From a virus, in the IMG/VR virus record IMGVR_UViG_3300042090_002370, positions 32,001 through 96,000 of that record: a stretch of 64,000 nucleotides of DNA. One strand, 5' to 3'. The translations under genes were made by a program, and so were the position numbers. This document shows, piece after piece, positions 31,436 through 64,000 of this stretch (positions are counted from its first letter, which is position 1; the number at the start of each line of letters is the position of its first letter). The notes beneath the pieces are model-generated. The model did no database searches and was not told the DNA's origin. It saw only the letters and a program-made list of their open reading frames with translations.

Positions 31436-32644
31436 TCAGCTTGTCTTGGGGCCGTAGTTGGTGAACGGCTGTGTTCCTGGTGCGCCAGTTACTGGCGTAC
31501 GCCCGGTGGTTGGCGGTGCGGCACCAAATCGAGAGATCTGATACTCCATCGAGTCTGGGGCGTAGCGGGCGACGAGGTCTACGGGTACAGCCATCTCTGC
31601 AAAGTCAGGTGCGACAGGTCGCGGCGGTGACCAACCCATGACTTGTAGCATTTTGGCCTTCTGGCCTGGTACCTCGGTGAGTTGTACGCGAATGTCGACG
31701 TCGAACAGCCCGGCGCGCTTACCAACCTGACCGAGCTTTTCGCATTCTACGCAGATGATCTCTTCGCGAAGTAGGCTCTTCTCGCCGCAGGCCGGGCATT
31801 CGTATGGCCGGTCCGTAAGCTTGTAGATCTCGTCCCATTTCAGTGAGGTGTTGCTCATGTCGATGGCAGGTTCGCCGCAGTGGCGGCAAGCCCAGACGAG
31901 GCTTCGGATAGGCGACTCGGTGCGGCCGTCTGGCTTGAGGTCCATTGTGCGGCAGACGGCGCACGACTGCCCGATGTTGACCTCAGAAGCGATGAGCACT
32001 TGGTTGTGCGTGTAGCTCATCGGCCAGTGGGACATATTGCCGAAGCGTTTCTCCTTACCGGCGCGGCAGGCATCGCAGCCCTGCCCTTGGCATTTTACCC
32101 AGTTGAAGAAAGCCTCACCGGTTTTGTTGTTGATCTTGAGCTGACCAGTAGCATGATCGATGGATTCGAGCTTGTGATACGGGCCATAATCCAGAACGGA
32201 GATCACGTACTTGTCGACACGGCTGATGGTCTTCGATTCGAGTCGGTTGGTCTTTGGGTCACGTACAGCGGTTTCCCAGAAGATGTCGCAGCCTCTGCAT
32301 GGCGCTCTCTTGCTCTTGATGTTGGCGAACGGCCCTGCGCTGCAGATTGCGCTCTTGCCCTTTCCAGTAGGGCTGCCTAGGAAGTGTTCGGTGAACGTGA
32401 TGTAGTCAGCCGGTAATTCTACGAGCTGTACGTCGTCGCCTGTACCGATGGCGTGCTGTTGTAGGTAGTGCCCTGCGATGAGGCGGATGGTGTCGGGGGA
32501 ACCAACAGTGGGCGTGTATTGATCTACGAAGTATGGCAGGCGGCCCTTTGGGCCGCGTGTGACAAGGTCACGGCCGAATGATTGAACAGTTTGGCGTAGT
32601 GAGCCGCCGGCGAGTGCAAGACGAGGATCTTTTCCGAATGCCAT
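31436..32644 (-). CDS. Probable single-stranded DNA-binding protein (gp32-like) with multiple Zn ribbons
   Basis: Lies between primase and polymerase. IRLI...EHF...C...CxxC...YVISVLD pattern; several extra CxxC pairs. Confidence 0.5.
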   Translation of the reverse strand: MAFGKDPRLALAGGSLRQTVQSFGRDLVTRGPKGRLPYFVDQYTPTVGSPDTIRLIAGHYLQQHAIGTGDDVQLVELPADYITFTEHFLGSPTGKGKSAICSAGPFANIKSKRAPCRGCDIFWETAVRDPKTNRLESKTISRVDKYVISVLDYGPYHKLESIDHATGQLKINNKTGEAFFNWVKCQGQGCDACRAGKEKRFGNMSHWPMSYTHNQVLIASEVNIGQSCAVCRTMDLKPDGRTESPIRSLVWACRHCGEPAIDMSNTSLKWDEIYKLTDRPYECPACGEKSLLREEIICVECEKLGQVGKRAGLFDVDIRVQLTEVPGQKAKMLQVMGWSPPRPVAPDFAEMAVPVDLVARYAPDSMEYQISRFGAAPPTTGRTPVTGAPGTQPFTNYGPKTS

Positions 32645-43486: not shown

Positions 43487-46400
43487 ATGAGCTTCGTTGG
43501 ACCCGGTGGCGCAGTCGCTTCAGGCCCGGCTTCTGGCCTGCGGTTCGCGCAGTCGCGTGGGCGTATCCAGGGCTCCAATGTTACGGGCGTCAATTATCCG
43601 TCTCCGTTCTTCGATGTCGCCCACACCTACTTGCCCGTCACCGTCAAGGCGATGTTCAAATGGTGCCGCTATTACTTCCTCACGAATCCGCTCATCAATG
43701 CGGTAGTCTTCAAGTTGTCGGAGTACCCGGTCACCGACATCATCATTGACCATCCGTCGAATGAGGTGAAGAGGCGCTGGACCGACTACTTTCAAGACCA
43801 CCTTCGCTGGCAGCCATTTCGTGTAGAGGCCGGTCTCGATTACTTCGCATACGGTAACGGTTGTATCAGTCTAGGCTTCCCGTTCAAGAAGTATCTCTAC
43901 TGTAAGAACTGCGCGTTCCGGGATGAAGCGGGGAAGATTCGAGCGCAGTGGATCTTTACGAGCTTTCAGTTCCGCCTGACGTGCCCAAAGTGTGGCTACG
44001 TCGGCGACGCGCTCGCGAAGGACTTCTATTACAAGAATGCGAGCGGCATCAAGACCATCCGCTGGAATCCTGAAGACATCGAGATTACGTACAACGACAT
44101 CTCTGGGGAGTACACGTACTTCTACACCATCCCTGCAACGGTGCGTAATGACATTGTCATTGGCAGGAAGGACATTGTCGAAGGCGTGCCGCAGGTCTTC
44201 ATCCAAGCGATGCGTGAGCAGAAGGGTGTCATCTTCTCGAAGGACAACTTCTTCCACATGCGTAGGCCTACGTTGGCTACGCAGGACCGCGGTTGGGGCA
44301 CGCCACTTCTTCTGCCTGTTCTGAAGGACACGTTCTACCTCCAGGTCATGAAGAAGGCGCAGGAGGCCATCCTCCTCGAGCACATCGTTCCGTTGAGAGT
44401 TTTGTTTCCACAAGCCGGAAGCGGATCTAGCGACCCCTACTGCGTTTCGCCAGAGACTCTGGTCGAAACACCTTCTGGTTTGCTGCCGGCAGCAGAGGTT
44501 CGCGAGGGCGAGTTCCTTCGCAGCCACACGGGTGCGTGGCGACGCGTCGAGTACCAGAAGCGCCGTCAGATCAAGCCGGCCGAGAAGGTGTTCAAGTTCC
44601 AGATCGCCTCCCTTCCGGCCTTTCCGTTCGCGGTTTCGGAAGATCATCCGATCTTGGCGGTGCCTCGCGTATCCCGCAAGAAGCCGCGCGCTGGTCTGGT
44701 CGACCCGACTTTCATCGAAGCGAAAGCGCTCAAGAAGGGTGACTACGTTGCCTATCCCATCAAGCGCCAGATCCGTCGGGGTCAGATGCTCGATCTGGCA
44801 GACTACGTGACTGAGCGCGCAGCAACCGACAGCTGGGTCTACCGCCGGCTATCGCAGAGTGCTGCGGAAGCATACGAGTGGCTCGAGCAGAACGCAGATC
44901 CCGTGCACGCCTGGGGCGAACGGAAGAAGCTCCTGGAAGAGAAGGGATGGTCGGAGGCAGACTACGCTACTGCAGCAGCTGCGCGCCGCGAGCCTAAGGT
45001 AGATCGCGTGAGCCGCTTTCTGCCGATGTGCCCTGCTCTGGGTTCACTCATTGGCTACTACCTGTCCGAGGGATCGTACGGTGGTTCCACGGTTTCTTTC
45101 TCGCTGCACCTCGAGGAGAAGGACTTCGCAGAGCTCATTGAAAGCGCTGTGAAGAGGCTCGGGTTCCGTGGCGTGTCGCACTACGAGCGCCCAGAGCAAC
45201 ACGGTCGAACTGTTGTCATTGAGGATGTGATCCTATCCGAGCTGTTGGTCTCCATGTGCGGCTCCGGCTTTGCCGAGAAGCGCATCCCAGACGTTGTGTC
45301 GGAGGCTAGTGACGTCATCGTCCTGGATATGCTCCGTGCGCTGTTCAACGGAGATGGCTGTGACTTCAAGACAACCACAGATCGCGTCGGGTTGAAACTT
45401 GCGAACCCCTCGATGATCATGGAGGCGCGTCGACTCCTGCTCTCGTTCGGTCTCATCGGAGGCGTGGTCAAAGAGGAACCTACTGCCACCACGAAGTTCC
45501 GAACGACGAGTTACCAGCTGAACTACAACGGCCACGCCGCATATAAGCTACGGCACTTGTTCGGTAGGCCTGGGGGCTTTGACTGGCAGGAGCTGCCGCA
45601 GAAGAGCGGCCTCGTGCGTGGTGACTACGTGCTCTTGCGGATCGATGCCGTGCACGAAGTTGCCGATGTTCCCGAGGTCATCGGCTTTCAAATGGCGGAG
45701 GACAAGAGCTTCTGTGTCGCCGGTGTCGCGACACACAACACGACGATCAATCTCATCGACTGGCGTGACCAGGTCGCCGCTGAGATCGCCCGCTGGCGTT
45801 ATGACAACAACTACATACCCATCATGCCGTTGCCGCTAGGCAACCAGACCATTGGTGGTGACGGTCGTGCGCTCATGCTCACGCAGGAGATCACGACTTG
45901 GAGCGACCAGATTCTTAATGGCATGGGAGTGCCCGTGGAATTCATACGCGGCGGCCTTTCCTACGCCGGGACTAACGTCTCCATGCGCATGATGGAGAAC
46001 ATGTTCCTTGGGTACATCTCGAGGCAGAAGGCCCTCGCCAAGTTCGTAATGAAGCAGGTCTCTAGCTTCCTTGGTTGGCCGGAGGCGAACATTCGCTTCA
46101 AGCCATTCAAGATGGCCGACGATCTGCAGCGGAAGGCCTACTTGTTCCAGTTGAATCAGGCGAACAAGGTGAGCGACACGACGCTGCTAGCGGACAGTGA
46201 CCTCGACCAGGACGAAGAGAACGAGATTATGATTCGCGAGACGGACAAGCGAATCGAGGCGACGAAGAAACAGCAGCTGGCCATGGCCCGCATTCAGGGT
46301 GAGGCGCAGCAGATCATGATGAAGTTCCAGACTAAGGCACAGCAGGATGCGCAGCAGGCTATGGGCGCCCCCGCTGCGCCAGGCGAGCCTGGGGGTATAG

Positions 46401-46852
46401 AAATGCAGGGGCAGGGTGGAGGTCCAGGTGGCGCCGGCGGCGAAGGCGCGATGCGGACAATGCCTGTGGAGATGCAGGCCGCTGGGGCCGGCGCGAGCGG
46501 TATGGCTGCGCCACCCGCGCAGCCTACGGACCCGTCGCCGCAGGACTTTCTCTCGTCGGTCTCGAGCCAGCTTACGGGTGAGACGAGACTGAACCAGGAG
46601 CAGAGCCAGAAGGGTATTGACCTTCCCACTTATGCGATGGGCCAAGCAAAGCTACTCGTAACGATGGCTAAGCCTCAGCAGGAACAGGCCCTGAGAAACA
46701 TTCAGGCGATGAGCCCGGAGCTCGCCGACCTGGTGAAGCAGATGCTGGCTGAACTGCAGCCGCAGGAGCAGGCTGATAGCGGTAGTGCTGGCGTAGACAC
46801 GCGACCTCTACCGCAACAGCGTCCACCGCGACGAGCGGGCGGGATGGTGTGA
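43487..46852 (+). CDS. Portal protein containing an intein
   Basis: NPLINAVVFKLSEY, DYFAYGN, WNPEDI, FHMRR...RGWGTPLLLPVL, ILNGMGVP: portal-like. Intein at aa 319-751; Q/G/P-rich C-terminus. Confidence 0.7.
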   Translation: MSFVGPGGAVASGPASGLRFAQSRGRIQGSNVTGVNYPSPFFDVAHTYLPVTVKAMFKWCRYYFLTNPLINAVVFKLSEYPVTDIIIDHPSNEVKRRWTDYFQDHLRWQPFRVEAGLDYFAYGNGCISLGFPFKKYLYCKNCAFRDEAGKIRAQWIFTSFQFRLTCPKCGYVGDALAKDFYYKNASGIKTIRWNPEDIEITYNDISGEYTYFYTIPATVRNDIVIGRKDIVEGVPQVFIQAMREQKGVIFSKDNFFHMRRPTLATQDRGWGTPLLLPVLKDTFYLQVMKKAQEAILLEHIVPLRVLFPQAGSGSSDPYCVSPETLVETPSGLLPAAEVREGEFLRSHTGAWRRVEYQKRRQIKPAEKVFKFQIASLPAFPFAVSEDHPILAVPRVSRKKPRAGLVDPTFIEAKALKKGDYVAYPIKRQIRRGQMLDLADYVTERAATDSWVYRRLSQSAAEAYEWLEQNADPVHAWGERKKLLEEKGWSEADYATAAAARREPKVDRVSRFLPMCPALGSLIGYYLSEGSYGGSTVSFSLHLEEKDFAELIESAVKRLGFRGVSHYERPEQHGRTVVIEDVILSELLVSMCGSGFAEKRIPDVVSEASDVIVLDMLRALFNGDGCDFKTTTDRVGLKLANPSMIMEARRLLLSFGLIGGVVKEEPTATTKFRTTSYQLNYNGHAAYKLRHLFGRPGGFDWQELPQKSGLVRGDYVLLRIDAVHEVADVPEVIGFQMAEDKSFCVAGVATHNTTINLIDWRDQVAAEIARWRYDNNYIPIMPLPLGNQTIGGDGRALMLTQEITTWSDQILNGMGVPVEFIRGGLSYAGTNVSMRMMENMFLGYISRQKALAKFVMKQVSSFLGWPEANIRFKPFKMADDLQRKAYLFQLNQANKVSDTTLLADSDLDQDEENEIMIRETDKRIEATKKQQLAMARIQGEAQQIMMKFQTKAQQDAQQAMGAPAAPGEPGGIEMQGQGGGPGGAGGEGAMRTMPVEMQAAGAGASGMAAPPAQPTDPSPQDFLSSVSSQLTGETRLNQEQSQKGIDLPTYAMGQAKLLVTMAKPQQEQALRNIQAMSPELADLVKQMLAELQPQEQADSGSAGVDTRPLPQQRPPRRAGGMV
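44441..45739 (+). mobile_element. Intein with LAGLIDADG homing endonuclease (433 aa)
   Basis: Block A CVSPETLV, block B SEDHPIL, LAGLIDADG motifs LIGYYLSEGS and MLRALFNGDG, terminal ATHN followed by Thr. Confidence 0.93.
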
Positions 46853-46934: not shown

Positions 46935-47155
46935 CATTTGCATGATTCCTCGACGATGGCTTCGGCGAGGTCGACGCGCCACTGTTCATCGAGGCGCTTT
47001 CGGTCCTCGTAGGTCTGGTAGGGAACTGAGAGGAGGAACCGGTAGCAGCGGCTGACGCTCTCCGGCGACCGGTCCTCCACTTGGTTAGGTCCTGACCATA
47101 TCCAGCGACCGCGATCGTTCCACCAGTACCCGGTATGCGGGAACCATGTGCGCAT
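46934..47155 (-). CDS. Hypothetical protein (Trp-rich, 73 aa)
   Basis: Coupled to the VWA gene stop; ends at T5. Confidence 0.6.
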   Translation of the reverse strand: MRTWFPHTGYWWNDRGRWIWSGPNQVEDRSPESVSRCYRFLLSVPYQTYEDRKRLDEQWRVDLAEAIVEESCK

Positions 47156-48669
47156 CAGATACTGATGTCGTCTTCGTCATCCTCATCGGGCTCGTCCGGT
47201 AGAATGACTGCGGCCTTGCGTTGCTTCGGGTCCTCGGTGACGAAGACCGTGTGCCCGTAGCGGGCTGGGGCCTTGTTCCTGGCGTATCCGCCGAGGATTA
47301 GGCACCACACGATGTCCATGTACATCGGCGGCTTCTTGGGGGCCGCGCCGTCGCCGTCGGTGCAGTAGATGAGGATGTCGGGACGGGGGAAGAGCTTGTC
47401 GGCCGCCTTGATGGCTGGGATGAAGCTCGTGCCGCCGCGGCCGTGGGCCTCATTCAGCGTGCGGAAAAACTGCGGACCTACGCGCTTCCACGGCATGGCG
47501 ACGTCCGCGTCAGCATCTGTAAACCAGGCCTCGTCGACGCCGAGCGCCAGGAGGATGTGGTAGGCCTCGCGGATGCAGGCGTTGAGCTGCTCGATGTTCA
47601 TCGAGCCGGAGGTGTCTCGGACGATGGCGACTTCGGGCTGGTGCTCGATCATGCCTGGGCGGACGATGCCCCTCATGATGGAGCGTTTGGATGGGCGGGA
47701 CATCGAGAAGTCCTCCCCACCAGCCTGTACGCGACCGGTGGAGTGACGGATAACGTGCGCGAGTTCTGTCTGCCAGCGCACGTGCGGTTCCTCGATGAGG
47801 GCTTTGGCGAGCTCAGCCAGGCCTGCAGGAACGCTTCCGCGCCCATTCGCTTCGATGTGCGCTGCGATGTCCGCAGCCGTCTTTTTGGTGATGGTTTCCA
47901 TTTCGACGGCGCTGCGGCCATGTTCGGCGTTCAGCTTGTCGACAAGACGAGGATCGTCTGTTCCACCGGCTATGCTGCCGCAGTGGCCGGAGCAGACGCC
48001 GTTACCAAGTCCAGGTTTGGGCTCTTGCTTACTTTGACCTCCATCTTGGTCAGGCTGGCCGGCCGGCTCTTGCGTTTGCTGTGAGGGCGTGGCGCCATGC
48101 CCGCTTTGGCTTTGATCCTGCTTCTGCTGAGGATTTTGTCCGCCTCCCTGTTTATTAGGCGCTCCTTTGCCGGAGTTTCCGATGCTGGGCGTCGGCATGG
48201 TGGCGCCATTATGCTTCATCTGTAAAAGCCGGTCGTAGTACTCTTCTGTGGAAAGGCCCTCCGGTAACCCGACGTGCGCAGGAAAGATGGCGGGTCGCGT
48301 TGATTTCTCACCGGCGAGCTCCCAGATGCCTGTGTTGCGCATGTCAGGATTGATGGTGAGGTCGCCGGCCAGATTGAAGAGGTTTTTGTCTTCTACAGTC
48401 GCTCCGCGCTCGAAGTGCCTGCGCATGAAGTGGTTGACTTCATGGACGATGTCTGCGGCTAGCTCCTTGATGCTTGCTTCGTTGATCCACTGCGGGTCGT
48501 AAGCCAGTACCATCTGCGCTGTTACGCCCATGGTGCCAAGGCCTTCGACAGGCACGTAGATGAAACCGTGTACTACGCTCGCGAAGTATGGTGCATCGAA
48601 GACGACTGCTGCTCTCGCATAGGAAAGCTTGTCCTCGATAGTGTCCACAGATGGTATGAGCGAGATCAT
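47155..48669 (-). CDS. Metallopeptidase-like + VWA domain protein (DUF2201-type)
   Basis: HEVNH, NLAGDLTIN, EEYY, MIDAS DTSGSM, GRGGTSF, TDG. Confidence 0.85.
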   Translation of the reverse strand: MISLIPSVDTIEDKLSYARAAVVFDAPYFASVVHGFIYVPVEGLGTMGVTAQMVLAYDPQWINEASIKELAADIVHEVNHFMRRHFERGATVEDKNLFNLAGDLTINPDMRNTGIWELAGEKSTRPAIFPAHVGLPEGLSTEEYYDRLLQMKHNGATMPTPSIGNSGKGAPNKQGGGQNPQQKQDQSQSGHGATPSQQTQEPAGQPDQDGGQSKQEPKPGLGNGVCSGHCGSIAGGTDDPRLVDKLNAEHGRSAVEMETITKKTAADIAAHIEANGRGSVPAGLAELAKALIEEPHVRWQTELAHVIRHSTGRVQAGGEDFSMSRPSKRSIMRGIVRPGMIEHQPEVAIVRDTSGSMNIEQLNACIREAYHILLALGVDEAWFTDADADVAMPWKRVGPQFFRTLNEAHGRGGTSFIPAIKAADKLFPRPDILIYCTDGDGAAPKKPPMYMDIVWCLILGGYARNKAPARYGHTVFVTEDPKQRKAAVILPDEPDEDDEDDISI

Positions 48670-49862
48670 GGGTTTCGCGTTGTGTGTACGAAGAGAGATA
48701 TCTTGTCCGCGAACTTCTTGATGATCTTACGGGACACTGCGTCCATCGCCGATGAGTGCTTCGTGGTGAAGCCTGCGCGCATTAGAGGTACTGCGGCAGC
48801 GCATGCGGCATCGAGCATACCGTGCTTCTCCCAGGCATCGGTGAGCAATACCCATGCTTTCAACGCCCACTTTGTGCGCTCATCCTTGTCTGGCTTCGCA
48901 AGTGTCCAGGCGATGGCTTGGCCGTAGGCGGCGAAGCAGATATCAAGGCGGCGCTTGTCGGGCTCCCATCCGTTTGTCAGCATGTCTTCTGGACTCGGCA
49001 TGTTGGCTTTGAGGGTCCATTCTCCCCATGCAGCTGCTGGCCCTTTTCCAACGCACGCGGTGATGAACTCGAGACGCCACTCCTTACGGCCGATGCATTC
49101 GCAGGTGGCAGCGACGTTGGTGGCGAGGTCCCAGGTTCTGGGTGACGGCCACGCGCGGCCGCGGTCGACGTGACCGTCGCGCGGTATTTTCAGGAGCGTA
49201 TCCGGACCTAGGCTTTTGATGAACCCAGCGAATAGCCCTTGGTAGTAGGGGAAGACGTCGGGCCACTTCTTGCGGACCATCTCCTCGCCCTCATCGGCGC
49301 CGATGACCTGAGCAGCGTGGTTGCCCATTCGCCATGAGGCCCACTTGTCCGGCGACGGCGTAGGCATGTCGAAATGCATAAGGCGATTGGCCATAGGTAA
49401 GGATAGTGGCCAACCGCCTGCAGCTTCCTCTGGCGGGTTGGCGGCGGCCATGATGCGGATGCCTCCTGGTAGACGCTTGTTAGCCAGGATGCGGTCGCGC
49501 ACGAGACTCAGGCCTGCGCCCTGTACTGCCGGGCGTGCGCAGGTGAGCTCGTCTACGAAAATGACACCGCGCTTGGCCCTGATGAGATCTTGGATGCCGG
49601 GGTGCGCGATGTGTGTTGTCACACCGCCCTTGCCATCAGACATCGGAATGCCGCCGAGTTCTTCTGGTTGTGCTGTCGACAAGAAGAGCTCGCTTACGCT
49701 AAGCCCCACTGCGTGACCGGCCTCGCGGACGCTGTCGGACTTGCCAATGCCCGGCGACCCCCAGAGGATAGCAGGCGCACCCCAACGGCAATCATCGTCG
49801 TATGGGTTGTCCATCGGTGTGAGAAGTGCAACGGAGATGAGGTGTTCGACGGGGATGTCCAT
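48666..49862 (-). CDS. MoxR-family AAA+ ATPase
   Basis: GSPGIGKS, FVDELT, AAANP, ANRLMH, PSPRTW. Confidence 0.88.
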   Translation of the reverse strand: MDIPVEHLISVALLTPMDNPYDDDCRWGAPAILWGSPGIGKSDSVREAGHAVGLSVSELFLSTAQPEELGGIPMSDGKGGVTTHIAHPGIQDLIRAKRGVIFVDELTCARPAVQGAGLSLVRDRILANKRLPGGIRIMAAANPPEEAAGGWPLSLPMANRLMHFDMPTPSPDKWASWRMGNHAAQVIGADEGEEMVRKKWPDVFPYYQGLFAGFIKSLGPDTLLKIPRDGHVDRGRAWPSPRTWDLATNVAATCECIGRKEWRLEFITACVGKGPAAAWGEWTLKANMPSPEDMLTNGWEPDKRRLDICFAAYGQAIAWTLAKPDKDERTKWALKAWVLLTDAWEKHGMLDAACAAAVPLMRAGFTTKHSSAMDAVSRKIIKKFADKISLFVHTTRNP

Positions 49863-50494: not shown

Positions 50495-51063
50495 CGTACT
50501 CTCTTCCTCTCTGCTCGCATCCAGCGGTGCTCAATGGTCTCGAAGCGCGTGTCGGGCGACTGCCCTGTTTCTGGTGCGTAGTCCCCGAGCATTACAAAGA
50601 GATCTTCTACGTCATAGTTCTTCCCTATGTGTACACGCCTGGCTATGTCGTACTCCGTGGTGAGGATGCTCATCGGCATCTGTGTTCGCAGCAGGCCTTC
50701 TCGTTCGAGTAGGTCGTCGCGTAGGTCTTCGTCGTCGCAGGCCAGACCGACCCAGCTCTCACTGGTGCAATCAACGTAGTACTCGTCCAGCCATGGGCAG
50801 AACTCGCCGGGTTGGGCGTAGCCCAGTATTACTTCCAGATCGCGTTGATTGCAGAAGGAGATGAATCCCTTCTGGTCGCGAATCTTTACGCGCAGGCCGC
50901 CTAGAACGCGGCCTGGGATGGGCATGTATGCGGTCTCGACTTGCCAGATACGTCGAGCATCGAGGGGGTCCGTAAACCGAACCCCCTCGATGCCTAGCTG
51001 TGTTTCTATGACGCGGGTTCCTGGGAATGTACTGGGTCTGTCACGGTACAGGTTGATGATCAA
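50479..51063 (-). CDS. Hypothetical protein
   Basis: GGAG RBS with TTG start; 194 aa. Confidence 0.65.
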   Translation of the reverse strand: MIINLYRDRPSTFPGTRVIETQLGIEGVRFTDPLDARRIWQVETAYMPIPGRVLGGLRVKIRDQKGFISFCNQRDLEVILGYAQPGEFCPWLDEYYVDCTSESWVGLACDDEDLRDDLLEREGLLRTQMPMSILTTEYDIARRVHIGKNYDVEDLFVMLGDYAPETGQSPDTRFETIEHRWMRAERKRVRWEKS

Positions 51064-51148
51064 GGTGCTCCGTCAGCTTGCGATGAATCCACAGCATGAT
51101 GCCGTTGAGAAAACCGGCGAGTATGAACCACAAGAGACTCTTTCTCAC
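51041..51148 (-). CDS. Small membrane peptide (35 aa)
   Basis: GTG start 6 nt after P5; MRKSLLWFILAGFLNGIMLWIHRKLTEHLDHQPVP. Confidence 0.45.
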   Translation of the reverse strand: MRKSLLWFILAGFLNGIMLWIHRKLTEHLDHQPVP

Positions 51149-51154
51149 GCTTCT

Positions 51155-51163
51155 CTTATTCCC
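51155..51163 (-). promoter_or_regulatory. Phage-specific promoter motif P5 (GGGAATAAG)
   Basis: SGGRATAAG copy heading the MoxR/VWA unit. Confidence 0.75.
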
Positions 51164-51186
51164 GTAGTGTTCAACCTATTTCCGCG

Positions 51187-51342
51187 TTACTCGCCCTCGT
51201 CTTCGCTTTCCTCGTCGTCTTCATCGAAGTCTTCATCGAAGTCTTCGGACCCGTCGTCTGTAGGTAGCAGCTCGCGTTCGATCTTTCGCTCCATGCCGCC
51301 ACCCACCGTCTCTTCTTTTACCTTCTTGTCCTTCGGTCCCAT
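51187..51342 (-). CDS. Small protein with a highly acidic C-terminal tail (51 aa)
   Basis: GAAAGG RBS; MGPKDKKVKEE...SEDFDEDFDEDDEESEDEGE. Confidence 0.6.
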   Translation of the reverse strand: MGPKDKKVKEETVGGGMERKIERELLPTDDGSEDFDEDFDEDDEESEDEGE

Positions 51343-51378
51343 ATTGATGCCTTTCGTGGCGTTGCATCTCCCATCTCT

Positions 51379-51387
51379 CTTATCCCG
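51379..51387 (-). promoter_or_regulatory. Phage-specific promoter motif P6 (CGGGATAAG)
   Basis: SGGRATAAG copy 36 nt upstream of ATG 51342; divergent from the RNAP gene. Confidence 0.75.
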
Positions 51388-51435
51388 CGGCGGTGCGTTT
51401 TTTGGTGTCGTTGGCCTTATGCCGGACGGCATGAG

Positions 51436-54400
51436 ATGATTGCAGCGGCCATGGCGTATTTGGACCCCAAGAAGGCGTTCGAACACCTGAAGGAACGCGT
51501 GCTCGAGGGCATACAGGACCAATTTGCCAAGAACCCCATTGTCGGGAAGAAGCAGTCGCTGCACCTTGAGGCGCTCGAAGTACGCGACAAGTTAGGTGAG
51601 GCAGACGACATCCGCGCACAGCACAAGGCAAAGGTGGAGAACGACACCTGGGCGGTGCCTATTTATGCCACACTGGCGCTCAAGGATAACGAGACCGGAA
51701 AGGCGTTAGACCGTCGAACTATCCGCATCGCGGAGATTCCGAAGACGACTAACAGGCACTCGTACATCATCGATGGGCAGGAGTATCAGGTCAACAACCA
51801 GTGGCAATTGCGGCACGGCATTTATGTAAAGCGCCGTGTGAACGGTGAGCTTGAGGCTGCGTGCAACGCGGGTCGCGGGTTCGATGTTGTGCTGGACCCG
51901 GCAACCAAAGTCTTTCGAATGGAGCACGGTAAGAGCCGCGGTAAGCTCCCCATCTACCCATTCCTCAAGACGCTTGGTGTGAGCGACGAAGATCTCATGA
52001 AGTCGTGGGGCAAGGAGATGTTCGAAGCGAATCAGAAGGCGCCGAAGTCGGACATTGCGCTCGAGAAATTCTACAAGGCGGATAAGCCGTGGGCAGGTAC
52101 TCCAACCAAGGAGGTCGCTGCCGAGCACTTCTACGACATGATGGAGAAGACGCATCTCCGTCCAGAGTCCACGCAACTCACGTTAGGGCGGCCCTTCACG
52201 CATGTATCCGGCGAGGCGCTGAAGCTCGCAACTGAGAAGATGCTCAAGGTACAGGCGGGGCACCCAGAGGATGACCGCGATTCACTGGTCTTCAAGGATC
52301 TACGTACCGCCGGTGACTTCGCCTATGACGCCATTCTACATCAGCGCAAGAATATTGAGACACGTGCCGGGCGACAGATCGACAAAGCAAAGGACGCCTA
52401 TGACGTCATGAAGTTCGACATGTTCAACAAGCCCATCAAGGGGGCGTTGTCCTCAGCGAACGCGGCGGCTATGCCGGCATCGCAGATCAATCCACTAGAG
52501 ATGGCGTCGTCTGCGATGCAGACTACTATCATGGGCGCAGGCGGTATTCGTACCGCGCAGCAGGTACAGCATGAAGCGAAGTTTGTGAATCCCAGCCATC
52601 TCGGTTTTCTTGATCCGCTCAACACACCGGAGGGTGAGAAAACAGGTGTCACATTGCGGCTGCCTATCGGTGTACGCAAGGTCGGGCACGAGGCGAAGAT
52701 TCCTCTCTACAACCTGCTCTCCAAAAAAACCGAGCTTGTCTCTCCAGGCGAGTTCATGGAGGCAAACATCGTCCTGCCAGATCAGGTGAAGTGGGAAGAT
52801 GGCGTACCGCATCCGCTGCACCATACAGTTCGCGCGAGCTCTAAGGGCAACGAGATTCGCGACGTGAAATTCGAGGATGCGCACTACGTTATGCGCAGCC
52901 CTTCTCAGCTTTTCAACATGACTTCGAACCTCATTCCATTCCTGGCGAACACGAGCGGTAACCGCGCGTCTATGGCGAGCAGGCATATGGAACAGGCGGT
53001 CTCGCTCTTGCATCGTGAGGCCCCACTTGTCCAGGTAGGTACAGGCTCCGACAAGGAAGGCATCGACACCTTCGAGAACATCATGGGCTACCAGGCGTCC
53101 CACGCTGCTTCGGAAGAAGGCAAAGTTGTAGCAGTGAACAGGGACGGCATTATCATTGAAGACCGCCTTGGTAAGAAGCACGAAGTTCAGCTCTACAACA
53201 ACTACCCGCTCAATGACGCCAAGAGTGTGATGCACTCTACACCCGTTGTCGCCGTCGGCGATCATGTGAAGAAGGGTCAGCTCATTGCAGACACGAACTT
53301 CTCCAAGAATGGGACGCTCGCTCTCGGCACGAACTTGCGCGTCGCGTACCTGCCCTTCAAAGGGTACAACTTCGAGGACGGTGTTGTCATTAGTGACAGC
53401 GCTGCCAAGAAGCTCTCGAGTGAGCATCTGCAGAAGCTGATGATGCCACTCGACCAGGAGACCATACTCGACAAGAAGCGCTTCCACATCTCCAACCCCG
53501 GGTTGATGACGAAGGAACAGTACGAGAAGATGGACTCGAACGGCATAGTGCGGGTGGGGCAGAAGGTCCAGCCAGGCGACCCGCTCGTTGCAGCGATGCG
53601 ACCGTACAAATTGAAGGACCGTACGGGTATGGCGGCTGTGCGCAAGGCCATGGGCGGTCGGCACGATGACCGCAGCATGCGGTGGGACAGCGACTTCGAG
53701 GGCGAGGTCGTAGGCGTACATCGCAGCGACAAAGGGCTGACCGTTCATGTTCGCACGGTCGAGCCTATGCAGGTCGGCGACAAGATCAGTAATCGTTATG
53801 GTGGGAAAGGTATCGTCACCAAGATTCTGCCCGACCCTGAGATGCCGCACACGAAGGACGGTAAGCATATAGAGGTAGCGCTAAACCCCAGCGGCATACC
53901 GGGGCGCATGAACGTGGGGCAGGTCTTCGAGACCTCCGTCGCCAAGATCGCCGAGAAGACCGGCAAGCCCTACATCGTGAAGAACTTCGACACGAACATG
54001 GACGTCATCGCCAAGGTCCAGGCTGACCTGAAGGCGCACGGGCTCTCGGACACCGAGGAGCTCAAGGATCCTGCGACTGGGCAGATCCTTGGGCAGGTGA
54101 CGGTGGGGCCGCAGCACATCTTCAAACTCGTTCACCAGATCGACAAGAAGCTTGCAGTGCGCAGCGGCAGTGGGACCCTGCCTGGGGCAGCGGCGGAGCA
54201 TTACGACTTGAATCTGCAGCCCATGGGTGGCAAGAGCACTGGCGGGCAGTCGATGGGCACGCTGGGGCTCTTCGCGCTCCTGGCGCACGGCGCCAAAGCA
54301 AACATCCGGGAGATGCAGACATACAAGTCGGAGGGCCCGGACCCGCAGACCGACCCGGCGAAGAGGTGGCCGAGCGACCACCACCGGATCTGGGCAGCCA

Positions 54401-57400
54401 TTCAGACTGGGCACCCACTACCGACGCCCAAGCCGACTTTTGCTTACCGCAAGTTCGAAGACATGCTACGCGGGAGTGGCATCAACATCGAGAAGAAGGG
54501 GCATGACCTTATCCTCTCGCCAATGACGGACCAACACATACGAGCGCTGGCGAAGAACGCACTGCCGCACCCTGCGGACATGCTGAACTCGAAGATGGAC
54601 AAGAACGGAGACCCTAAGCCTAAGGCCGGTGGGCTCTGGGATGAGAAGCTTACTGGTGGGTTGGGCGGTCGTCAGTGGACGCGAATCGAGCTATCTGAAC
54701 CGCTGCCAAACCCCATCTTCGAGAAGCCTATCAAGGCACTGACCGGGCTCTCTCCAAAAGACTTTAATGCTGTTCTGCATGGAAGTAAGGGCGTCACGGC
54801 GAATGGCAACATCACGGAGGCCGGCGCCGGCGTAACTGGCGGAGCGGGCATCAAGGTTTTGCTAGACCGCGTCAACGTTGCGCGCGATCTCGCCAAGGCC
54901 GAGGCTCAGCTGAAGATCGTCAAGGGGCAGAGCGTCGACCGTGTACTGAAGAAGGTAAAGTACTTGCGGGCGCTCAAGCAGATTGGGGTGACCCCAAGCG
55001 AGGCGTACATCCTTCACAACATCCCTGTCATGCCGCCCATCATGCGACCGGTATCGAAACTGCCGGATGGGTCACCTAAGTTCGACGATATCAACCAGCT
55101 CTATTCCGACTTCGCGAAGATCAACGATAAGTTGAAGGACCCCATCTTGGTGAGGAATCTCACTGACGAGGGGAAGTCGGATCTCCGCAAGGACTTCTAC
55201 GACGGCGCCAAGATGTTCATGGGCATGGGGCTCCAGTACGGAGATGCCAAGCACAAGGGGCTACTGCACCAGATTGCCGGCAGCTCACCGAAACACGGCT
55301 ACTTCCAGGACAAGCTCATCGCCCGCAAGCAGGATCTGACGATGCGCTCGACCATCGTCCCCGAGCCAGGTCTCGATTTGGATGAGGTGGGTCTGCCGAA
55401 GCACGCCGCGCTCGAGCTTTTCAAGCCCTTTGTCGTTCGCCAGCTCAAGCAGATGGGCGCCATACAGAACGAGGTGCAGGGCGCGGCCTTTGTAGAGAAG
55501 AAGAGCCCACAGGTCTGGCGTGCGCTCGATCGTGTGATGGCGGAGCGACCTATTCTCCTAAAGCGAGACCCTGCGCTGCACAAGTACAATGTGCAAGCCT
55601 TCCGTGCACGGCCTATTGAGGGCGACGCTGTGCGCATACACCCGCTCGTGACGGGCGGATACAACGCCGATTTCGACGGCGACACGATGAGTGCCTTCGT
55701 GCCCATCACGCACGATGCGGTGAACGAGGCCGTACGGATGTTCCCCTCTCATAACCTCTTCAGCGAGGCGACTGGCCGGCTTATGTACCAGCCGACGCTC
55801 GAGAGCGCCCTCGGACTCTACAAGCTGTCGGTAGTTGGTAAGGACTCCGGGCAGAAGTTTGAGCACGCTGGCCTGGCACTTGACGCCGTGCGTTCGGGGA
55901 AGCTTGGGTATACCGATGTCGTACACATCGGTGGCAAGAAAACCACGCCGGGGCGCATTCTGCTCTCCAGCGCGGTTCCGGAGGCTATGCAGAGCGAGAT
56001 GCTGCATGATCTTCACTATCGAATCGACGGTAAGTCAGCGGGCCTGAGCGCGCTTCTGACAGGCATTGCTAAGCATTACGGCCCGCAGTATGGAGAGGTC
56101 GTCAACAAGCTGAAGGATCTCGGCAACACTACGACATTCGGAGCAGCAGCGGTTCCGCGGGCTACTAGCGCTGGGCACGCGATGTCTTTTAGCACGTTGG
56201 GTAAGAACCCAGTCGCAACACTCAATAAGAAGATGGATGTCTTCATCCCAGTTGGGGCGCACACACTCTCGCTTAAGGACTTCGAGCCGGACAAGGCGTC
56301 GAGGGACCACGTGCTGTCAGCAGCTCACAAGGTCGTAGAGAAATACGCCGACGACCCGAAAATGACTAAGGACGAGAGGGATCGCAGAACCATTGCCGTA
56401 TACGAACACGCCGCCGACGAGATGAAGGCCCTACATGAAAAGAAGGAAGAGAAAGACCCAAGCAACCTCTACACAATGTACAAGGCTGGCGTGAAGCCTG
56501 GCTGGGACCAGTACAAACAGATGGTTCTAGCACCCATGATTTACAAGGATTCCGCTGATCGGAAGATTCCGATACCTGTGACCAAGAGCTACGCAGAGGG
56601 GCTAGACGTAGGCAGCTACTGGACTCAGATGCACGGCGCCCGACGCGGTTCGGTCATGAAGGTGCAAGAGGTCAGCGGTCCAGGCTATCTATCCAAGTTG
56701 CTCATGAACAACATGATGCACATTCTTGTGAACTCTCCTGATTGCGGGACGAGCAAGGGCATCGTCCTGGACGCCAATGAGGCAGATATTCATGATCGAT
56801 ACCTGCAGCAGGAGTTCACACACGGCAAGGTTACTTTTCCTGCGGGTACGCTACTCACCCCAAGCGTTGTCGGGAAGATCCGAGCGGCGAAGAAGGACGC
56901 CAAGCTGCTTGTACGAAGCCCGCTGAAATGCGAGGACCCGAAAGGGATTTGCCAGATGTGCTCAGGGCTTGGCTCGAGTGGTCAGCACTACGACCTGGGG
57001 CACAATCTCGGCGTGCAGTCTGCACAAGCCGTTGGTGAACGCGGCATCCAGTTAGCGCTCAAGAGCTTTCATACAGGTGGCGTAGGCGAACACAAGGGCG
57101 GCTCGAAGCTGCTCAACTCCTTCGAGCGCTTCAAGCAGCTTATGTACTTGCCTGAGAAAGTTCAGGACGAGTCCTCCCTAGCGATGAAGACTGGGAAGGT
57201 TGAACAGATCGTGCCTACGTCAACAGGAGTTGACATCTTCATCGGCGGGCAGAAGCACCATGTGGGCCGCGATACGAAGGGCATGCCGCTGCATCAGCCG
57301 CTGCCAGGCGCAGAGGCGGTAGAGGGCTATGTCCACTGGAAGGTTCCGGTGGTCGGGCAGCACCTCAAGGCAGGGGACACGCTCTCCGACCCCAACCGTA

Positions 57401-57915
57401 CGCTGCTCAACCCCCATCATCTCTATGCGGCGACAGGCTCCATTGAGGAGGTACAGAATCACCTCACGAATGAGATCTACGGGCTCTACCAGAAGGAAGG
57501 CATCAAGCGTCGAGCCATTGAAACGGTCGTGCGCGCGATGAGTAACCTAACCAAGGTCAATGACCCTGGCGAGCATCCCGATGTCCTCCGCGGTGAGTTC
57601 TACCCGCTGGCACAGGTGCAGCATATGAACCAAGAGCTGCTGCGCAACAAGAAGCGGCCTATCGAACACGAGCCGGTGATGAAAGGCATCAGCGCTATGC
57701 CTCATGCCCTCATTGAGGATTGGATGGCGAAGTTGCAGCATGAACATCTGCGAACGACGCTCACTGAGGCCGCGGCGATGGGCGGCATTTCCCACCTCCA
57801 TTCTACTCACCCGATTCCAGCCATTGCTTTCGGCGCCGAATTCGGGCTTACTTCCAAGGACGCGCTAAAGCCAGGGCATGAACACTTACGTGATGTGCCG
57901 GCGCATTACTACTAG
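51436..57915 (+). CDS. rpoBC: Single-chain DNA-directed RNA polymerase: fused beta-beta' subunits
   Basis: Beta motifs: YIIDGQE, NTPEGEKTG, LIPFL...NRASM, GYNFED, GDKISNRYGGKG, NPSGIPGRMNVGQ, GGQSMG. Beta' motifs: PVMPPIMRP, LELFKPF, catalytic NADFDGD (55663-55683), bridge helix HGARRG, trigger loop LKSFHTGG. No stop between the two halves. Start at 51436 or 51451. Confidence 0.96.
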   Translation: MIAAAMAYLDPKKAFEHLKERVLEGIQDQFAKNPIVGKKQSLHLEALEVRDKLGEADDIRAQHKAKVENDTWAVPIYATLALKDNETGKALDRRTIRIAEIPKTTNRHSYIIDGQEYQVNNQWQLRHGIYVKRRVNGELEAACNAGRGFDVVLDPATKVFRMEHGKSRGKLPIYPFLKTLGVSDEDLMKSWGKEMFEANQKAPKSDIALEKFYKADKPWAGTPTKEVAAEHFYDMMEKTHLRPESTQLTLGRPFTHVSGEALKLATEKMLKVQAGHPEDDRDSLVFKDLRTAGDFAYDAILHQRKNIETRAGRQIDKAKDAYDVMKFDMFNKPIKGALSSANAAAMPASQINPLEMASSAMQTTIMGAGGIRTAQQVQHEAKFVNPSHLGFLDPLNTPEGEKTGVTLRLPIGVRKVGHEAKIPLYNLLSKKTELVSPGEFMEANIVLPDQVKWEDGVPHPLHHTVRASSKGNEIRDVKFEDAHYVMRSPSQLFNMTSNLIPFLANTSGNRASMASRHMEQAVSLLHREAPLVQVGTGSDKEGIDTFENIMGYQASHAASEEGKVVAVNRDGIIIEDRLGKKHEVQLYNNYPLNDAKSVMHSTPVVAVGDHVKKGQLIADTNFSKNGTLALGTNLRVAYLPFKGYNFEDGVVISDSAAKKLSSEHLQKLMMPLDQETILDKKRFHISNPGLMTKEQYEKMDSNGIVRVGQKVQPGDPLVAAMRPYKLKDRTGMAAVRKAMGGRHDDRSMRWDSDFEGEVVGVHRSDKGLTVHVRTVEPMQVGDKISNRYGGKGIVTKILPDPEMPHTKDGKHIEVALNPSGIPGRMNVGQVFETSVAKIAEKTGKPYIVKNFDTNMDVIAKVQADLKAHGLSDTEELKDPATGQILGQVTVGPQHIFKLVHQIDKKLAVRSGSGTLPGAAAEHYDLNLQPMGGKSTGGQSMGTLGLFALLAHGAKANIREMQTYKSEGPDPQTDPAKRWPSDHHRIWAAIQTGHPLPTPKPTFAYRKFEDMLRGSGINIEKKGHDLILSPMTDQHIRALAKNALPHPADMLNSKMDKNGDPKPKAGGLWDEKLTGGLGGRQWTRIELSEPLPNPIFEKPIKALTGLSPKDFNAVLHGSKGVTANGNITEAGAGVTGGAGIKVLLDRVNVARDLAKAEAQLKIVKGQSVDRVLKKVKYLRALKQIGVTPSEAYILHNIPVMPPIMRPVSKLPDGSPKFDDINQLYSDFAKINDKLKDPILVRNLTDEGKSDLRKDFYDGAKMFMGMGLQYGDAKHKGLLHQIAGSSPKHGYFQDKLIARKQDLTMRSTIVPEPGLDLDEVGLPKHAALELFKPFVVRQLKQMGAIQNEVQGAAFVEKKSPQVWRALDRVMAERPILLKRDPALHKYNVQAFRARPIEGDAVRIHPLVTGGYNADFDGDTMSAFVPITHDAVNEAVRMFPSHNLFSEATGRLMYQPTLESALGLYKLSVVGKDSGQKFEHAGLALDAVRSGKLGYTDVVHIGGKKTTPGRILLSSAVPEAMQSEMLHDLHYRIDGKSAGLSALLTGIAKHYGPQYGEVVNKLKDLGNTTTFGAAAVPRATSAGHAMSFSTLGKNPVATLNKKMDVFIPVGAHTLSLKDFEPDKASRDHVLSAAHKVVEKYADDPKMTKDERDRRTIAVYEHAADEMKALHEKKEEKDPSNLYTMYKAGVKPGWDQYKQMVLAPMIYKDSADRKIPIPVTKSYAEGLDVGSYWTQMHGARRGSVMKVQEVSGPGYLSKLLMNNMMHILVNSPDCGTSKGIVLDANEADIHDRYLQQEFTHGKVTFPAGTLLTPSVVGKIRAAKKDAKLLVRSPLKCEDPKGICQMCSGLGSSGQHYDLGHNLGVQSAQAVGERGIQLALKSFHTGGVGEHKGGSKLLNSFERFKQLMYLPEKVQDESSLAMKTGKVEQIVPTSTGVDIFIGGQKHHVGRDTKGMPLHQPLPGAEAVEGYVHWKVPVVGQHLKAGDTLSDPNRTLLNPHHLYAATGSIEEVQNHLTNEIYGLYQKEGIKRRAIETVVRAMSNLTKVNDPGEHPDVLRGEFYPLAQVQHMNQELLRNKKRPIEHEPVMKGISAMPHALIEDWMAKLQHEHLRTTLTEAAAMGGISHLHSTHPIPAIAFGAEFGLTSKDALKPGHEHLRDVPAHYY

Positions 57916-57920
57916 GAGCC

Positions 57921-59195
57921 ATGCTGAATTGGGCATCGAAATTTCGCACGTCGATGACGAGCGTGGCTGGTCATGGGCCGGCTAAGATTTGCCAAGGGCG
58001 CATCGTCAACATCAATCTGCTCAAGTGGACGGTCGATGTTATCGCGCAATTCGACAGGAAGCGTTACTTCAACATCCAGGTGAGCTCGCCATATCTGCAC
58101 CATGCCAGCGGCGAGGGCATCTACGTCATGCCTGAGGTCAATGCGACCGTCATGGTCTGCATCCCCTCGGACAGCACGGCGCCCTTCGTTCTAGGTTTCA
58201 TTATGCCGACTGAGACCGTCGACTCCTCTACGGACGACGCGCCTCTCGGTACGACGCAGCACGCTCAGGCACCGGCGAACGCGACTGACTCCTCCTATGC
58301 CGCCGGACGCACAGCGAATCCTGGTGACATCGTTATGCGCTCGAGGGACAACAACTTTGTCATTCTGCATCGAGGGGGCGTGCTCCAGGTGGGTGCGACT
58401 CCGCTCGCGCAGCGCCTCTATATCCCTCTGCAGAATCTCGTGATGGACATCAGCGAGAACTATGAGCACCAGAATTCTGGTGGTGCCATCAAGTGGGGTA
58501 TACAGGAAGGCCCTTCGCAGACGACGCACCCCACGCAGTTCGTCCAAACCTTCCGTGTCTTTGCCGAGAATCAGTACGCGGACGTGCGCGTGACGTGCGG
58601 CGACATCACCGGACCATACGGGGACCCAGACGGCGGTGTTGCCGCTGCTGCGGATGGCTTGGGGCAGAAGAACAACACGGCTACAGCTAGCAACTGCGTT
58701 CTCTTCGAGATCGCCGTTACACCGCAAGGCTTCAACGTCAGCACTGGCGTGCCCAACGATGTTCCGGTTTCAGCGTCTACCTTCCGCTTCGCCTACGACA
58801 GAACTGGCAACGTTTTTTTACGTAATGCCGGCAACTTCTCCCAGCAAACGCAGGGTAAATACACGCTTTCGGTAGTCGGTGACCTCAGCGTTTCTTCGCA
58901 GGGTGTCGTGGAGCTCACATCACCCAAGAGCGTCAAGATCAACGGCGGAAAAGAGACGGACATTATAGGGACTGTCGTACGGCTGAATGCTGGGAAGAAC
59001 GCCGTGGCCTCTAAGGGCGACATGGTGCGTATCGATGTCGCAACCACTACGCCATTACAGGTCGGGCCGACTCCTATCCCGGTTGTCGGCTCTCCAACCG
59101 GCCCGTGGAGCATCGCTCCTGGAACACCCATCATCTTGACTGGCACGCTCTGGGGTTCGATTGTTGTCTGCCAAAACAGTTCGGTGCTGACGTGA
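57921..59195 (+). CDS. Baseplate central spike (gp5/gpV-like OB fold + beta repeats)
   Basis: AGGAG RBS; GRIVNI...VMPEVNATVMV...FVLG OB-fold pattern; PGDIVM; C-terminal beta-strand repeats and VASKGD. Confidence 0.6.
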   Translation: MLNWASKFRTSMTSVAGHGPAKICQGRIVNINLLKWTVDVIAQFDRKRYFNIQVSSPYLHHASGEGIYVMPEVNATVMVCIPSDSTAPFVLGFIMPTETVDSSTDDAPLGTTQHAQAPANATDSSYAAGRTANPGDIVMRSRDNNFVILHRGGVLQVGATPLAQRLYIPLQNLVMDISENYEHQNSGGAIKWGIQEGPSQTTHPTQFVQTFRVFAENQYADVRVTCGDITGPYGDPDGGVAAAADGLGQKNNTATASNCVLFEIAVTPQGFNVSTGVPNDVPVSASTFRFAYDRTGNVFLRNAGNFSQQTQGKYTLSVVGDLSVSSQGVVELTSPKSVKINGGKETDIIGTVVRLNAGKNAVASKGDMVRIDVATTTPLQVGPTPIPVVGSPTGPWSIAPGTPIILTGTLWGSIVVCQNSSVLT

Positions 59196-63526: not shown

Positions 63527-63774
63527 CCCTTCTTGAGCGCCAGTCTTGTGATCTTCCAGCCGCTCTCCTTGGCGTACTCCCTCATCAGGGACGTCAGCGA
63601 GCTCCACACGGACGGCATGAGATTGCCAGGCGCGAGTTGTAGTGAGCACTCGTAGGACGCGTCTTTGGGTATGCACCGAGCATTGGATGTGAACACTGGA
63701 CCGGCGGCCTGTACACAACTCCACATGTTGTTGAGCAGCTCCTGCGCGTCTGCGGTCTCTGTCGGTGGAAACAC
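63466..63774 (-). CDS. Hypothetical protein
   Basis: Protein-like 102-aa ORF filling the gap; overlaps the convergent gene by about 60 nt. Confidence 0.4.
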   Translation of the reverse strand: MFPPTETADAQELLNNMWSCVQAAGPVFTSNARCIPKDASYECSLQLAPGNLMPSVWSSLTSLMREYAKESGWKITRLALKKGHVALAISPSSASSNKSKNR

Positions 63775-63782
63775 GTGAGCCT

Positions 63783-64000
63783 ATGACTATCTATCATCAC
63801 TACGGACCCAACGGCTACCAGGAGCTGGATAGCGAAGACGAACCGGAGCTCAGCGACGACGCGCTCCGAGCGGCCTACGATTGGATGAACGCGCCGGAGT
63901 CCTTCGCGGACTTCAGTCTAGTTGACGAGGCCTATGTAGAGGACGGCGACATCCCACCTATCCTGCCTTCGGAATTTACCGAGTTCGCCTTCCGGATGCC
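63783..64000 (+). CDS. N-terminus of a gene truncated by the window edge (possibly large terminase)
   Basis: Open from ATG 63783 to the end (MTIYHHYG...PSEFTEFAFRMP). The terminase identity is only a guess; no ATPase motif lies inside the window. Confidence 0.35.
   Translation, partial: MTIYHHYGPNGYQELDSEDEPELSDDALRAAYDWMNAPESFADFSLVDEAYVEDGDIPPILPSEFTEFAFRM

Follow-up and report, generated by a model that had tools for sequence, protein, structure and literature searches.

A phage gene predicted to encode a single-chain beta-beta' RNA polymerase and its conservation in a large clade of tailed phages

Introduction

Multisubunit RNA polymerases (RNAPs) are thought to need an alpha platform (or Rpb3/11) that unites their two large subunits, and to our knowledge the versions encoded by phages come in more pieces, not fewer. 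A stretch of viral DNA of 64,000 nucleotides (positions 32,001 to 96,000 of the IMG/VR record IMGVR_UViG_3300042090_002370, here called the window) raises the question of how such an enzyme could work as one polypeptide, as it contains an open reading frame (ORF) in which homologues of the bacterial beta and beta' subunits follow one another in a single chain. The record is a 163,859-bp viral contig rated 88% complete, and it holds only this one RNAP locus. The best explanation of the data is that the fused gene is a working gene for a single-chain catalytic core of the bacterial type in which all catalytic elements are kept. The fused layout characterises a large clade of tailed phages of 165-200 kb, most of them uncultured, which are distant kin of the Salmonella phage Arash and the Vibrio phages D69, D148 and D181. 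It is also probable that the enzyme is a packaged core, independent of alpha and omega, which is directed by a phage sigma-like factor and transcribes phage genes independently of the host polymerase.

The fused gene and its motifs

The gene and its parts are located in the window as follows.

51436..57915, plus strand: fused beta-beta' RNAP gene, the longest ORF, 2,159 aa with no internal stops
51436..54492, plus strand: beta module, aa 1-1019, with the fork (Rpb2_3), the hybrid-binding domain (Rpb2_6) and the GDKxxxRxGxKG and NFED active-site motifs
54493..54507, plus strand: junction KKGHD, aa 1020-1024, a predicted beta-hairpin turn
54508..57915, plus strand: beta' module, aa 1025-2159, with the clamp coiled-coil (~1218-1262), NADFDGD, the bridge helix (~1721-1760), the Zn2 cysteines and the trigger-loop N-arm
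54631..54678, plus strand: site of the missing beta' N-terminal Zn ribbon (E. coli C70, C72, C85, C88), a deletion of ~32 aa
55666..55686, plus strand: catalytic Mg-binding motif NADFDGD, aa 1411-1417

An earlier note on this DNA had proposed that a beta C-terminal motif runs through KKGHD straight into a beta' N-terminus within one ORF, and an alignment with RpoB and RpoC as annotated in the E. coli K-12 genome places all three elements where they had been claimed. The end of beta, KFEDMLRGSGINIE, occupies aa 1006-1019 and is the counterpart of E. coli beta 1325-1338, while beta' opens with LILSPMTD at aa 1025, the counterpart of E. coli beta' ~19-26. Translation probably begins at the ATG at 51451, five codons inside the longest ORF, because the consensus start of the family is MA(Y/H)LDP; the product would then have 2,154 aa. 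Pfam recognises both halves, with the beta domains Rpb2_3 (27.7 bits) and Rpb2_6 (198.8 bits) within aa 349-911 and the beta' domains Rpb1_1, Rpb1_2 (88.1 bits) and Rpb1_5 (66.4 bits) within aa 1154-2047.

The elements on which catalysis depends in this enzyme class are retained in the fused protein and across its family. An alignment of 15 diverse members keeps NADFDGD, the bridge helix, the trigger-loop N-arm, the four Zn2 cysteines and the GDKxxxRxGxKG and NFED motifs of beta, and the junction is conserved in these members as well. In the fused protein itself the active-site lysine motif and NFEDG of beta are conserved, the trigger-loop region lies at ~aa 1867-1882, and the Zn2 cysteines of DCGT, KCE and ICQMC are present. 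The beta module also contains a flap-tip helix (~aa 732-740) and a GINIE strand at its C-terminal end. The rifampicin pocket is altered, with E. coli Q513, D516, H526 and S531 replaced by M, S, S and T. These are the four main positions of rifampicin resistance, and with none of them conserved the enzyme is probably insensitive to the drug.

Predicted fold and size

AlphaFold models of residues 1-1100 (pLDDT 83.6) and 1001-2159 (pLDDT 84.6) were compared with known structures by Foldseek. The beta half matches whole bacterial beta chains (TM 0.71-0.73, E ~1e-70) and the beta' half whole bacterial beta' chains (TM 0.74-0.78, E ~1e-60), the best values being 0.73 and 0.78, and bacterial chains fill the top ranks for both. 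The junction is modelled as a tight beta-hairpin between the last strand of beta (1016-1021) and the first strand of beta' (1024-1029). The beta C-terminus and the beta' N-terminus lie side by side in the clamp of multisubunit RNAPs, which makes a fusion possible, and an engineered E. coli tether joins the two subunits in the same order, beta C-terminus to beta' N-terminus.

The fused protein had also been described as compact, about 600 aa shorter than the two E. coli subunits together. The figure is accurate, E. coli beta and beta' amounting to 2,749 aa and the deficit to 590 aa, but the impression of compactness comes largely from the choice of E. coli for comparison. Most of the deficit is made up by inserts specific to the E. 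coli lineage (beta-i4, beta-i9 and beta' SI3) that the fused protein lacks, together with the beta' Zn1 ribbon and the tails, and compact bacterial chains of 1,193 and 1,199 aa exceed the fused protein by only ~230 aa in total. The loss of the beta' N-terminal Zn ribbon is shared by the family, as the ribbon is gone and no cysteine remains in 15 of 15 aligned members.

A fusion shared by a phage clade

A fused gene in a metagenomic contig could be an assembly or annotation artefact, or the recent capture of a host rpoBC operon. The breadth of the family speaks against both. Among 5.8 billion proteins searched, more than 120 clusters (at 90% identity) of 2,120-2,170 aa match over their full length with 54-79% identity, on contigs of up to 200 kb. 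One close relative, P0003, is 79% identical and is encoded on a contig of 197,936 bp. An exhaustive HMMER search with the segment spanning the junction returned 150 representatives (50%-identity clusters) with E < 1e-133, nearly all of them at least 2,000 aa long. The junction falls inside one alignment block in 268 of 269 independent database relatives, the exception being a fragment truncated at its N-terminus, and the fusion is therefore not a chance feature of this contig.

Identity to cellular enzymes is only 26-34%, even for the RpoB and RpoC of a Myxococcales metagenome-assembled genome (MAG) whose bin holds a related phage contig, and this agrees with the earlier description of the protein as collinear with RpoB/RpoC yet strongly diverged. 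The PDB scores single out no bacterial phylum, and the Zn1 loss and the junction hairpin are derived characters common to the family. In a maximum-likelihood tree of 2,018 columns, whose cellular part consists of 4 taxa belonging to 3 phyla, with neither archaeal nor phiKZ-type enzymes, the fused clade forms one group with Arash and D69 (SH-aLRT 100), distinct from the four cellular taxa and from the lineage of the phages Carin-5 and YerA41; the fused protein is thus not nested among the cellular sequences sampled. The gene sits in a viral contig, as had been stated from the start. On the strength of these comparisons the fusion is confirmed as real and as neither artefact nor recent capture, to which we give almost no credence.

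The fusion was implied by the earlier note to be unique, and this did not hold, since it marks a very large metagenomic clade and the same beta-beta' junction is already carried by Arash and D69. The RNAPs of Arash (Gp206 and Gp216; OQ632216; PMC10585845) and of the Vibrio phages D69, D148 and D181 (OZ195729 and others) belong to the same clade with ~30-33% identity. Arash gp206 and D69 0261 span residues 8-1507 of the fused protein with the junction in one gene, as here, so that Gp206 comprises beta and the N-terminal half of beta'. In Arash and the Vibrio phages, however, beta' is split after about residue 1507 into a second gene, whereas the present protein and most metagenomic relatives form one chain. 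The gap between the two pieces measures 4.7 kb in Arash and 0.6 kb in D69, whose RNAP genes are annotated as hypothetical. In D148 and D181 (L002 / H2-H3) a homing-endonuclease gene occupies the gap, which suggests that the split in the Vibrio phage lineage arose by insertion of a mobile element. These phages otherwise resemble the fused clade in having an RNAP gene beside the portal gene, no alpha or omega, and sigma-like genes.

Inserts of 280-520 aa are common in the fused relatives (P0002-P0270) at about ten sites, all on catalytic motifs. In the numbering of the present protein (P0001), which has no such inserts, they occur at ~400 (n=15), 630-650 (5), 780-820 (22), 960-970 (6), 1080-1100 (3), 1290 (2), 1420-1440 (46), 1840 (2) and in the trigger loop at 1880-1940 (21). 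The commonest site of these intein-sized inserts lies just past NADFDGD, at 1420-1440. Some of the matches listed with precomputed domains have PF14528 (LAGLIDADG_3), and members reach up to 4,739 aa.

Two observations touch on the host. The closest subclade includes the 91.8-kb contig CALFEQ010000137.1, which is binned in the uncultured Myxococcales MAG, and a protein of 2,045 aa (P0088) on a 13.6-Mb contig of Pendulispora rubella (locus LVJ94_35230). Among the Myxococcota genomes searched (401 at phylum level and 401 at class level) only that Myxococcales MAG was positive. The cellular references included two records of the phage collection that resemble bacterial chromosome contigs: CAKLQH020000005.1 ('Acinetobacter phage MD-2021a'), with an annotated rplJ-rplL-rpoB-rpoC locus, and OR844998.1 ('Staphylococcus phage SA 1306 Kay'), which is unannotated and has adjacent RpoB- and RpoC-sized frames (1,185 and 1,215 aa).

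Alpha, omega and sigma

The earlier note had recognised no alpha, omega or sigma gene in the window, and the first two absences extend well beyond it. Neither alpha (PF01000) nor omega (PF01192) gave a match at E<=1 in the contig, in G402, a relative that is 100% complete, or in Arash and D69, whose genomes are complete too, with positive controls in 14 of 14 genomes. Because both are also missing from these three relatives, the absence of alpha and omega is, as judged by profile search, a property of the lineage.

The suggestion that the enzyme could do without sigma fared differently, as relatives encode a protein with Sigma70 region 3. Relative G403, whose RNAP is 67% identical to the fused protein, has a 266-aa protein that scores 49.9 bits on Sigma70_r3, a homologue of 48% identity is found in G402, and D69 and Arash possess two sigma-like genes each. 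The sigma-like family has 149 members, seven of which lie on contigs that exactly match, in size, those of fused-RNAP matches, and by sequence profile and co-occurrence it is a conserved partner of the fused RNAP in relatives. In the window and the whole 163.9-kb contig, six-frame Pfam searches for Sigma70 regions 2, 3 and 4 yielded noise only, as did phmmer and tblastn searches of the contig with Arash gp10/gp196, the Carin-5 sigma, YerA41 gp136 and the sigma-like proteins of G403 and G402. The extended search that the earlier note had called for thus found neither alpha nor sigma in the remainder of the contig. In G403 and G402 the sigma-like gene lies 1.4-2.3 kb past the homologue of gene g195, and in the present contig g195 ends at 163,305, with 554 bp left before the contig ends at 163,859. 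The missing gene is therefore attributed to the contig end, its syntenic position being predicted to fall just beyond it. The product of g184 (210 aa), the positional counterpart of Arash gp9/gp10, was considered as a hidden sigma; it gave no Pfam or Atlas signal.

The core might instead borrow a sigma factor from the host, and perhaps host alpha and omega as well, in place of a phage specificity subunit. The models retain the folds of the clamp coiled-coil and the flap tip, to which sigma docks in bacteria, and the contig itself offers no sigma, alpha or omega gene. The sigma-docking helices have nevertheless diverged strongly from their bacterial counterparts, and a conserved phage sigma-like family travels with the fused RNAP on the same contigs, which makes dependence on host factors improbable. 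A phage-encoded sigma-like protein remains the preferred source of promoter specificity.

A promoter-like motif

The motif GGRATAAG occurs in 9 copies against 1.6 expected, a number reached in none of 100 shuffles. The wider form (C/G)GG(A/G/T)ATAAG has 25 copies in the contig, and those in the window span 13604-60110. GGRATAAG usually stands ~6 nt before a Shine-Dalgarno sequence (GGAGG) and the start codon of non-structural genes, and (C/G)GGRATAAG is a candidate promoter for the fused enzyme. It is not a standard -35/-10 pair, which again counts against a core guided by a host sigma. No element common to the regions upstream of structural operons, as might serve as a late promoter, was apparent by eye. 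Two copies lie close to the RNAP gene.

51379..51386, minus strand: promoter-like motif GGGATAAG, oriented away from the RNAP gene and preceding a small acidic ORF (51187-51343)
51155..51162, minus strand: second promoter-like copy, GGAATAAG

The arrangement in which the motif faces away from the RNAP gene recurs at the same place in the relatives L006 and L009. The minus-strand ORF 51187-51343, directly behind GGGATAAG and divergent from the RNAP gene, encodes ~52 aa and is very acidic with an Asp/Glu-rich tail; such an acidic early protein could act as a DNA mimic or block a factor of the host. A plus-strand ORF at 50849-51439 had been considered as an upstream partner gene and is probably spurious, given the two minus-strand promoter-like motifs and the minus-strand ORFs in that region.

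Gene neighbourhood and packaging in the virion

The RNAP gene is surrounded by genes of virion morphogenesis.

43487..46852, plus strand: portal gene, homologous to Arash gp204, which bounds the morphogenesis module on its upstream side
47155-49862, minus strand: HNH endonuclease-like (phrog_1314) and ATPase (phrog_1297) genes between portal and RNAP, conserved in all relatives
57921..59195, plus strand: g107, a baseplate central spike/hub-like gene of 424 aa with resemblance to Phage_base_V, Gp5_OB and VgrG
63765..64000, plus strand: first part of the large terminase gene, homologous to Arash gp1, which continues past the window and bounds the module on its downstream side

The order portal, minus-strand HNH/ATPase block, RNAP, spike-like gene, two unknown genes and large terminase is kept in 7 of 7 relatives, and in all seven the spike-like gene starts within a few bases of the end of the RNAP gene. 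The product of g107 was considered as an accessory subunit of the RNAP and set aside, as it looks like a baseplate spike or hub. A 432-aa intein (~44444-45739) that contains a LAGLIDADG_3 domain interrupts the portal gene. The sequences flanking it match the portal gp204 of Arash, and its junctions are of the textbook kind (N-terminal ...DPY|CVSPETL..., C-terminal ...THN|TT...).

Because the gene lies inside this module, from portal through RNAP and spike to terminase, the polymerase is proposed to be synthesised late and packaged. In purified virions of Arash, Gp206 gave the most spectra of any protein (3,516) with 100% coverage, and the proteins detected included Gp216 and the sigma-like Gp10 (PMC10585845). 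The location of the gene in a structural module and the abundance of the Arash homologue in virions together favour an enzyme that would be packaged and injected.

The alternative is an enzyme made after infection that serves middle and late genes only, as do the non-virion RNAPs of phiKZ and AR9, with the early genes left to the host polymerase. We regard this as unlikely, though it deserves more weight than the other alternatives. Some observations would suit it, as the polymerase carries no packaging-like N-terminal tag and a single RNAP locus in the contig does not require an injected enzyme. The position within the structural module in all relatives runs counter to it, as do the dominance of Gp206 in Arash particles, with a sigma-like protein alongside, and the placement of GGRATAAG ahead of non-structural genes.

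Several points weigh against a packaged enzyme directed by a phage sigma-like factor. The authors of the Arash study allow for the carry-over of abundant enzymes into purified particles (PMC10585845), and packaging is extrapolated from this relative, which is only ~30% identical. The N-terminal F.DEL.KIA tag, borne in this genome by g184 and the SNF2 ATPase g191, is absent from the fused RNAP. No copy of GGRATAAG lies ahead of the RNAP gene itself, and a sigma-like gene was not found in this 88%-complete contig. As for ancestry, the cellular sampling of the tree is thin (three phyla, no archaeal or phiKZ-type rows) and bears little on the deep origin of the enzyme. On balance packaging and injection, with a phage sigma-like partner, are still what we consider probable.

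The two proteins that bear the tag are encoded near the end of the contig.

Contig 153952-154584 (L030:5953-6585): g184, 210 aa, with an F.DEL.KIA start
Contig 157972-160134 (L030:9973-12135): g191, a SNF2-family ATPase, 38% identical to the Arash virion protein Gp217

In other systems, too, ATPases of the SNF2 family occur together with RNAPs, examples being RapA and the poxvirus NPH-I and VETF. In Arash the Gp217 gene abuts the gene for the C-terminal part of beta'. As a universal partner of the RNAP the SNF2 ATPase was rejected, being present in G403 and Arash and not found in the complete genomes of G402 or D69.

Comparison with other fused, split and single-chain polymerases

Cellular RpoBC fusions, which likewise join the C-terminus of beta to the N-terminus of beta', occur in Helicobacter and Wolbachia, where the gene has rplL-rpoBC surroundings and the enzyme continues to depend on alpha2, omega and sigma. 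The fused protein differs from these in its viral context, in the absence of alpha and omega, in the loss of the Zn1 ribbon and in its low identity to cellular enzymes. Bacterial-type large subunits are also found in the ~150-kb genomes of Cobetia phage Carin-5 and Yersinia phage YerA41, and in Carin-5 an annotated sigma gene adjoins them. There each subunit has its own gene, with beta' preceding beta. In the tree these subunits occupy a long branch of their own, and their identity to the fused protein is only ~25%.

The virion RNAP of phage N4 is a large single chain that is packaged and injected, and belongs to the T7-like single-subunit enzymes. The crAss-like virion RNAP is likewise a large single chain that is packaged and injected (PMC7481178). 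Enzymes of the crAss and YonO type, both of them two-barrel single chains, are too diverged for beta and beta' profile hidden Markov models to recognise, whereas P0001 is detected strongly (199 bits for Rpb2_6 and 88 bits for Rpb1_2). On account of these strong Pfam matches to beta and beta' domains P0001 is classified as lying outside the crAss-like/YonO class, and unlike the crAss, YonO and N4 types it superposes on whole bacterial subunits.

The specificity subunit of the phiKZ and AR9 enzymes is, as far as is known, not recognisably sigma-like, in contrast to the Sigma70_r3 partner found in relatives of the fused RNAP. The phiKZ and AR9/PBS1 enzymes (reviewed in PMC7598289) are similarly composed of phage-encoded beta and beta' homologues without alpha or omega, and one form is packaged in the virion, but their beta and beta' are each divided, and they consist of 4-5 polypeptides in two sets, virion and non-virion, where the present phage has one chain and one locus. 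A phage RNAP of the multisubunit type is thus a kind already known, and the single chain with a sigma-like partner appears, from these comparisons, to be new. No published description of a full-length fused phage beta-beta' of this kind was found in a literature search whose coverage did not extend to subscription journals.

Model and implications

In the model that we consider probable, beta and beta' would be joined head-to-tail through the conserved beta-hairpin turn, and this covalent tethering would stand in for the assembly role of alpha. Promoter specificity would come from the phage-encoded sigma-like protein with Sigma70 region 3. The polymerase would be made late, packaged in the head and injected with the DNA, and the injected enzyme may then transcribe phage genes without the host polymerase. 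A further-reaching version, which we advance only tentatively and hold to be somewhat less likely than its opposite, is that this is the simplest known bacterial-type machine. It would consist of a 240-kDa beta-beta' chain and a ~30-kDa sigma-like protein, with the tether replacing the alpha2 platform, and the chain would be packaged, passed through the tail as a single polypeptide and refolded unaided in the host. If true, this would provide a two-gene, rifampicin-insensitive RNAP of the multisubunit type that could be transferred to other systems.

The substituted pocket positions lead to a simple prediction, namely that transcription by these phages should be resistant to rifampicin, and a compact two-gene polymerase would be useful to structural work and synthetic biology. 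The finding makes it possible to test whether a tether can replace an assembly platform, what the minimum for a sigma-dependent polymerase is, and how an enzyme of 240 kDa may be packaged and delivered. Set against the phage polymerases known in more pieces, a widespread clade of phages appears to have gone the opposite way, with a near-complete beta and beta' in one chain, no alpha or omega, and a sigma-like partner kept.

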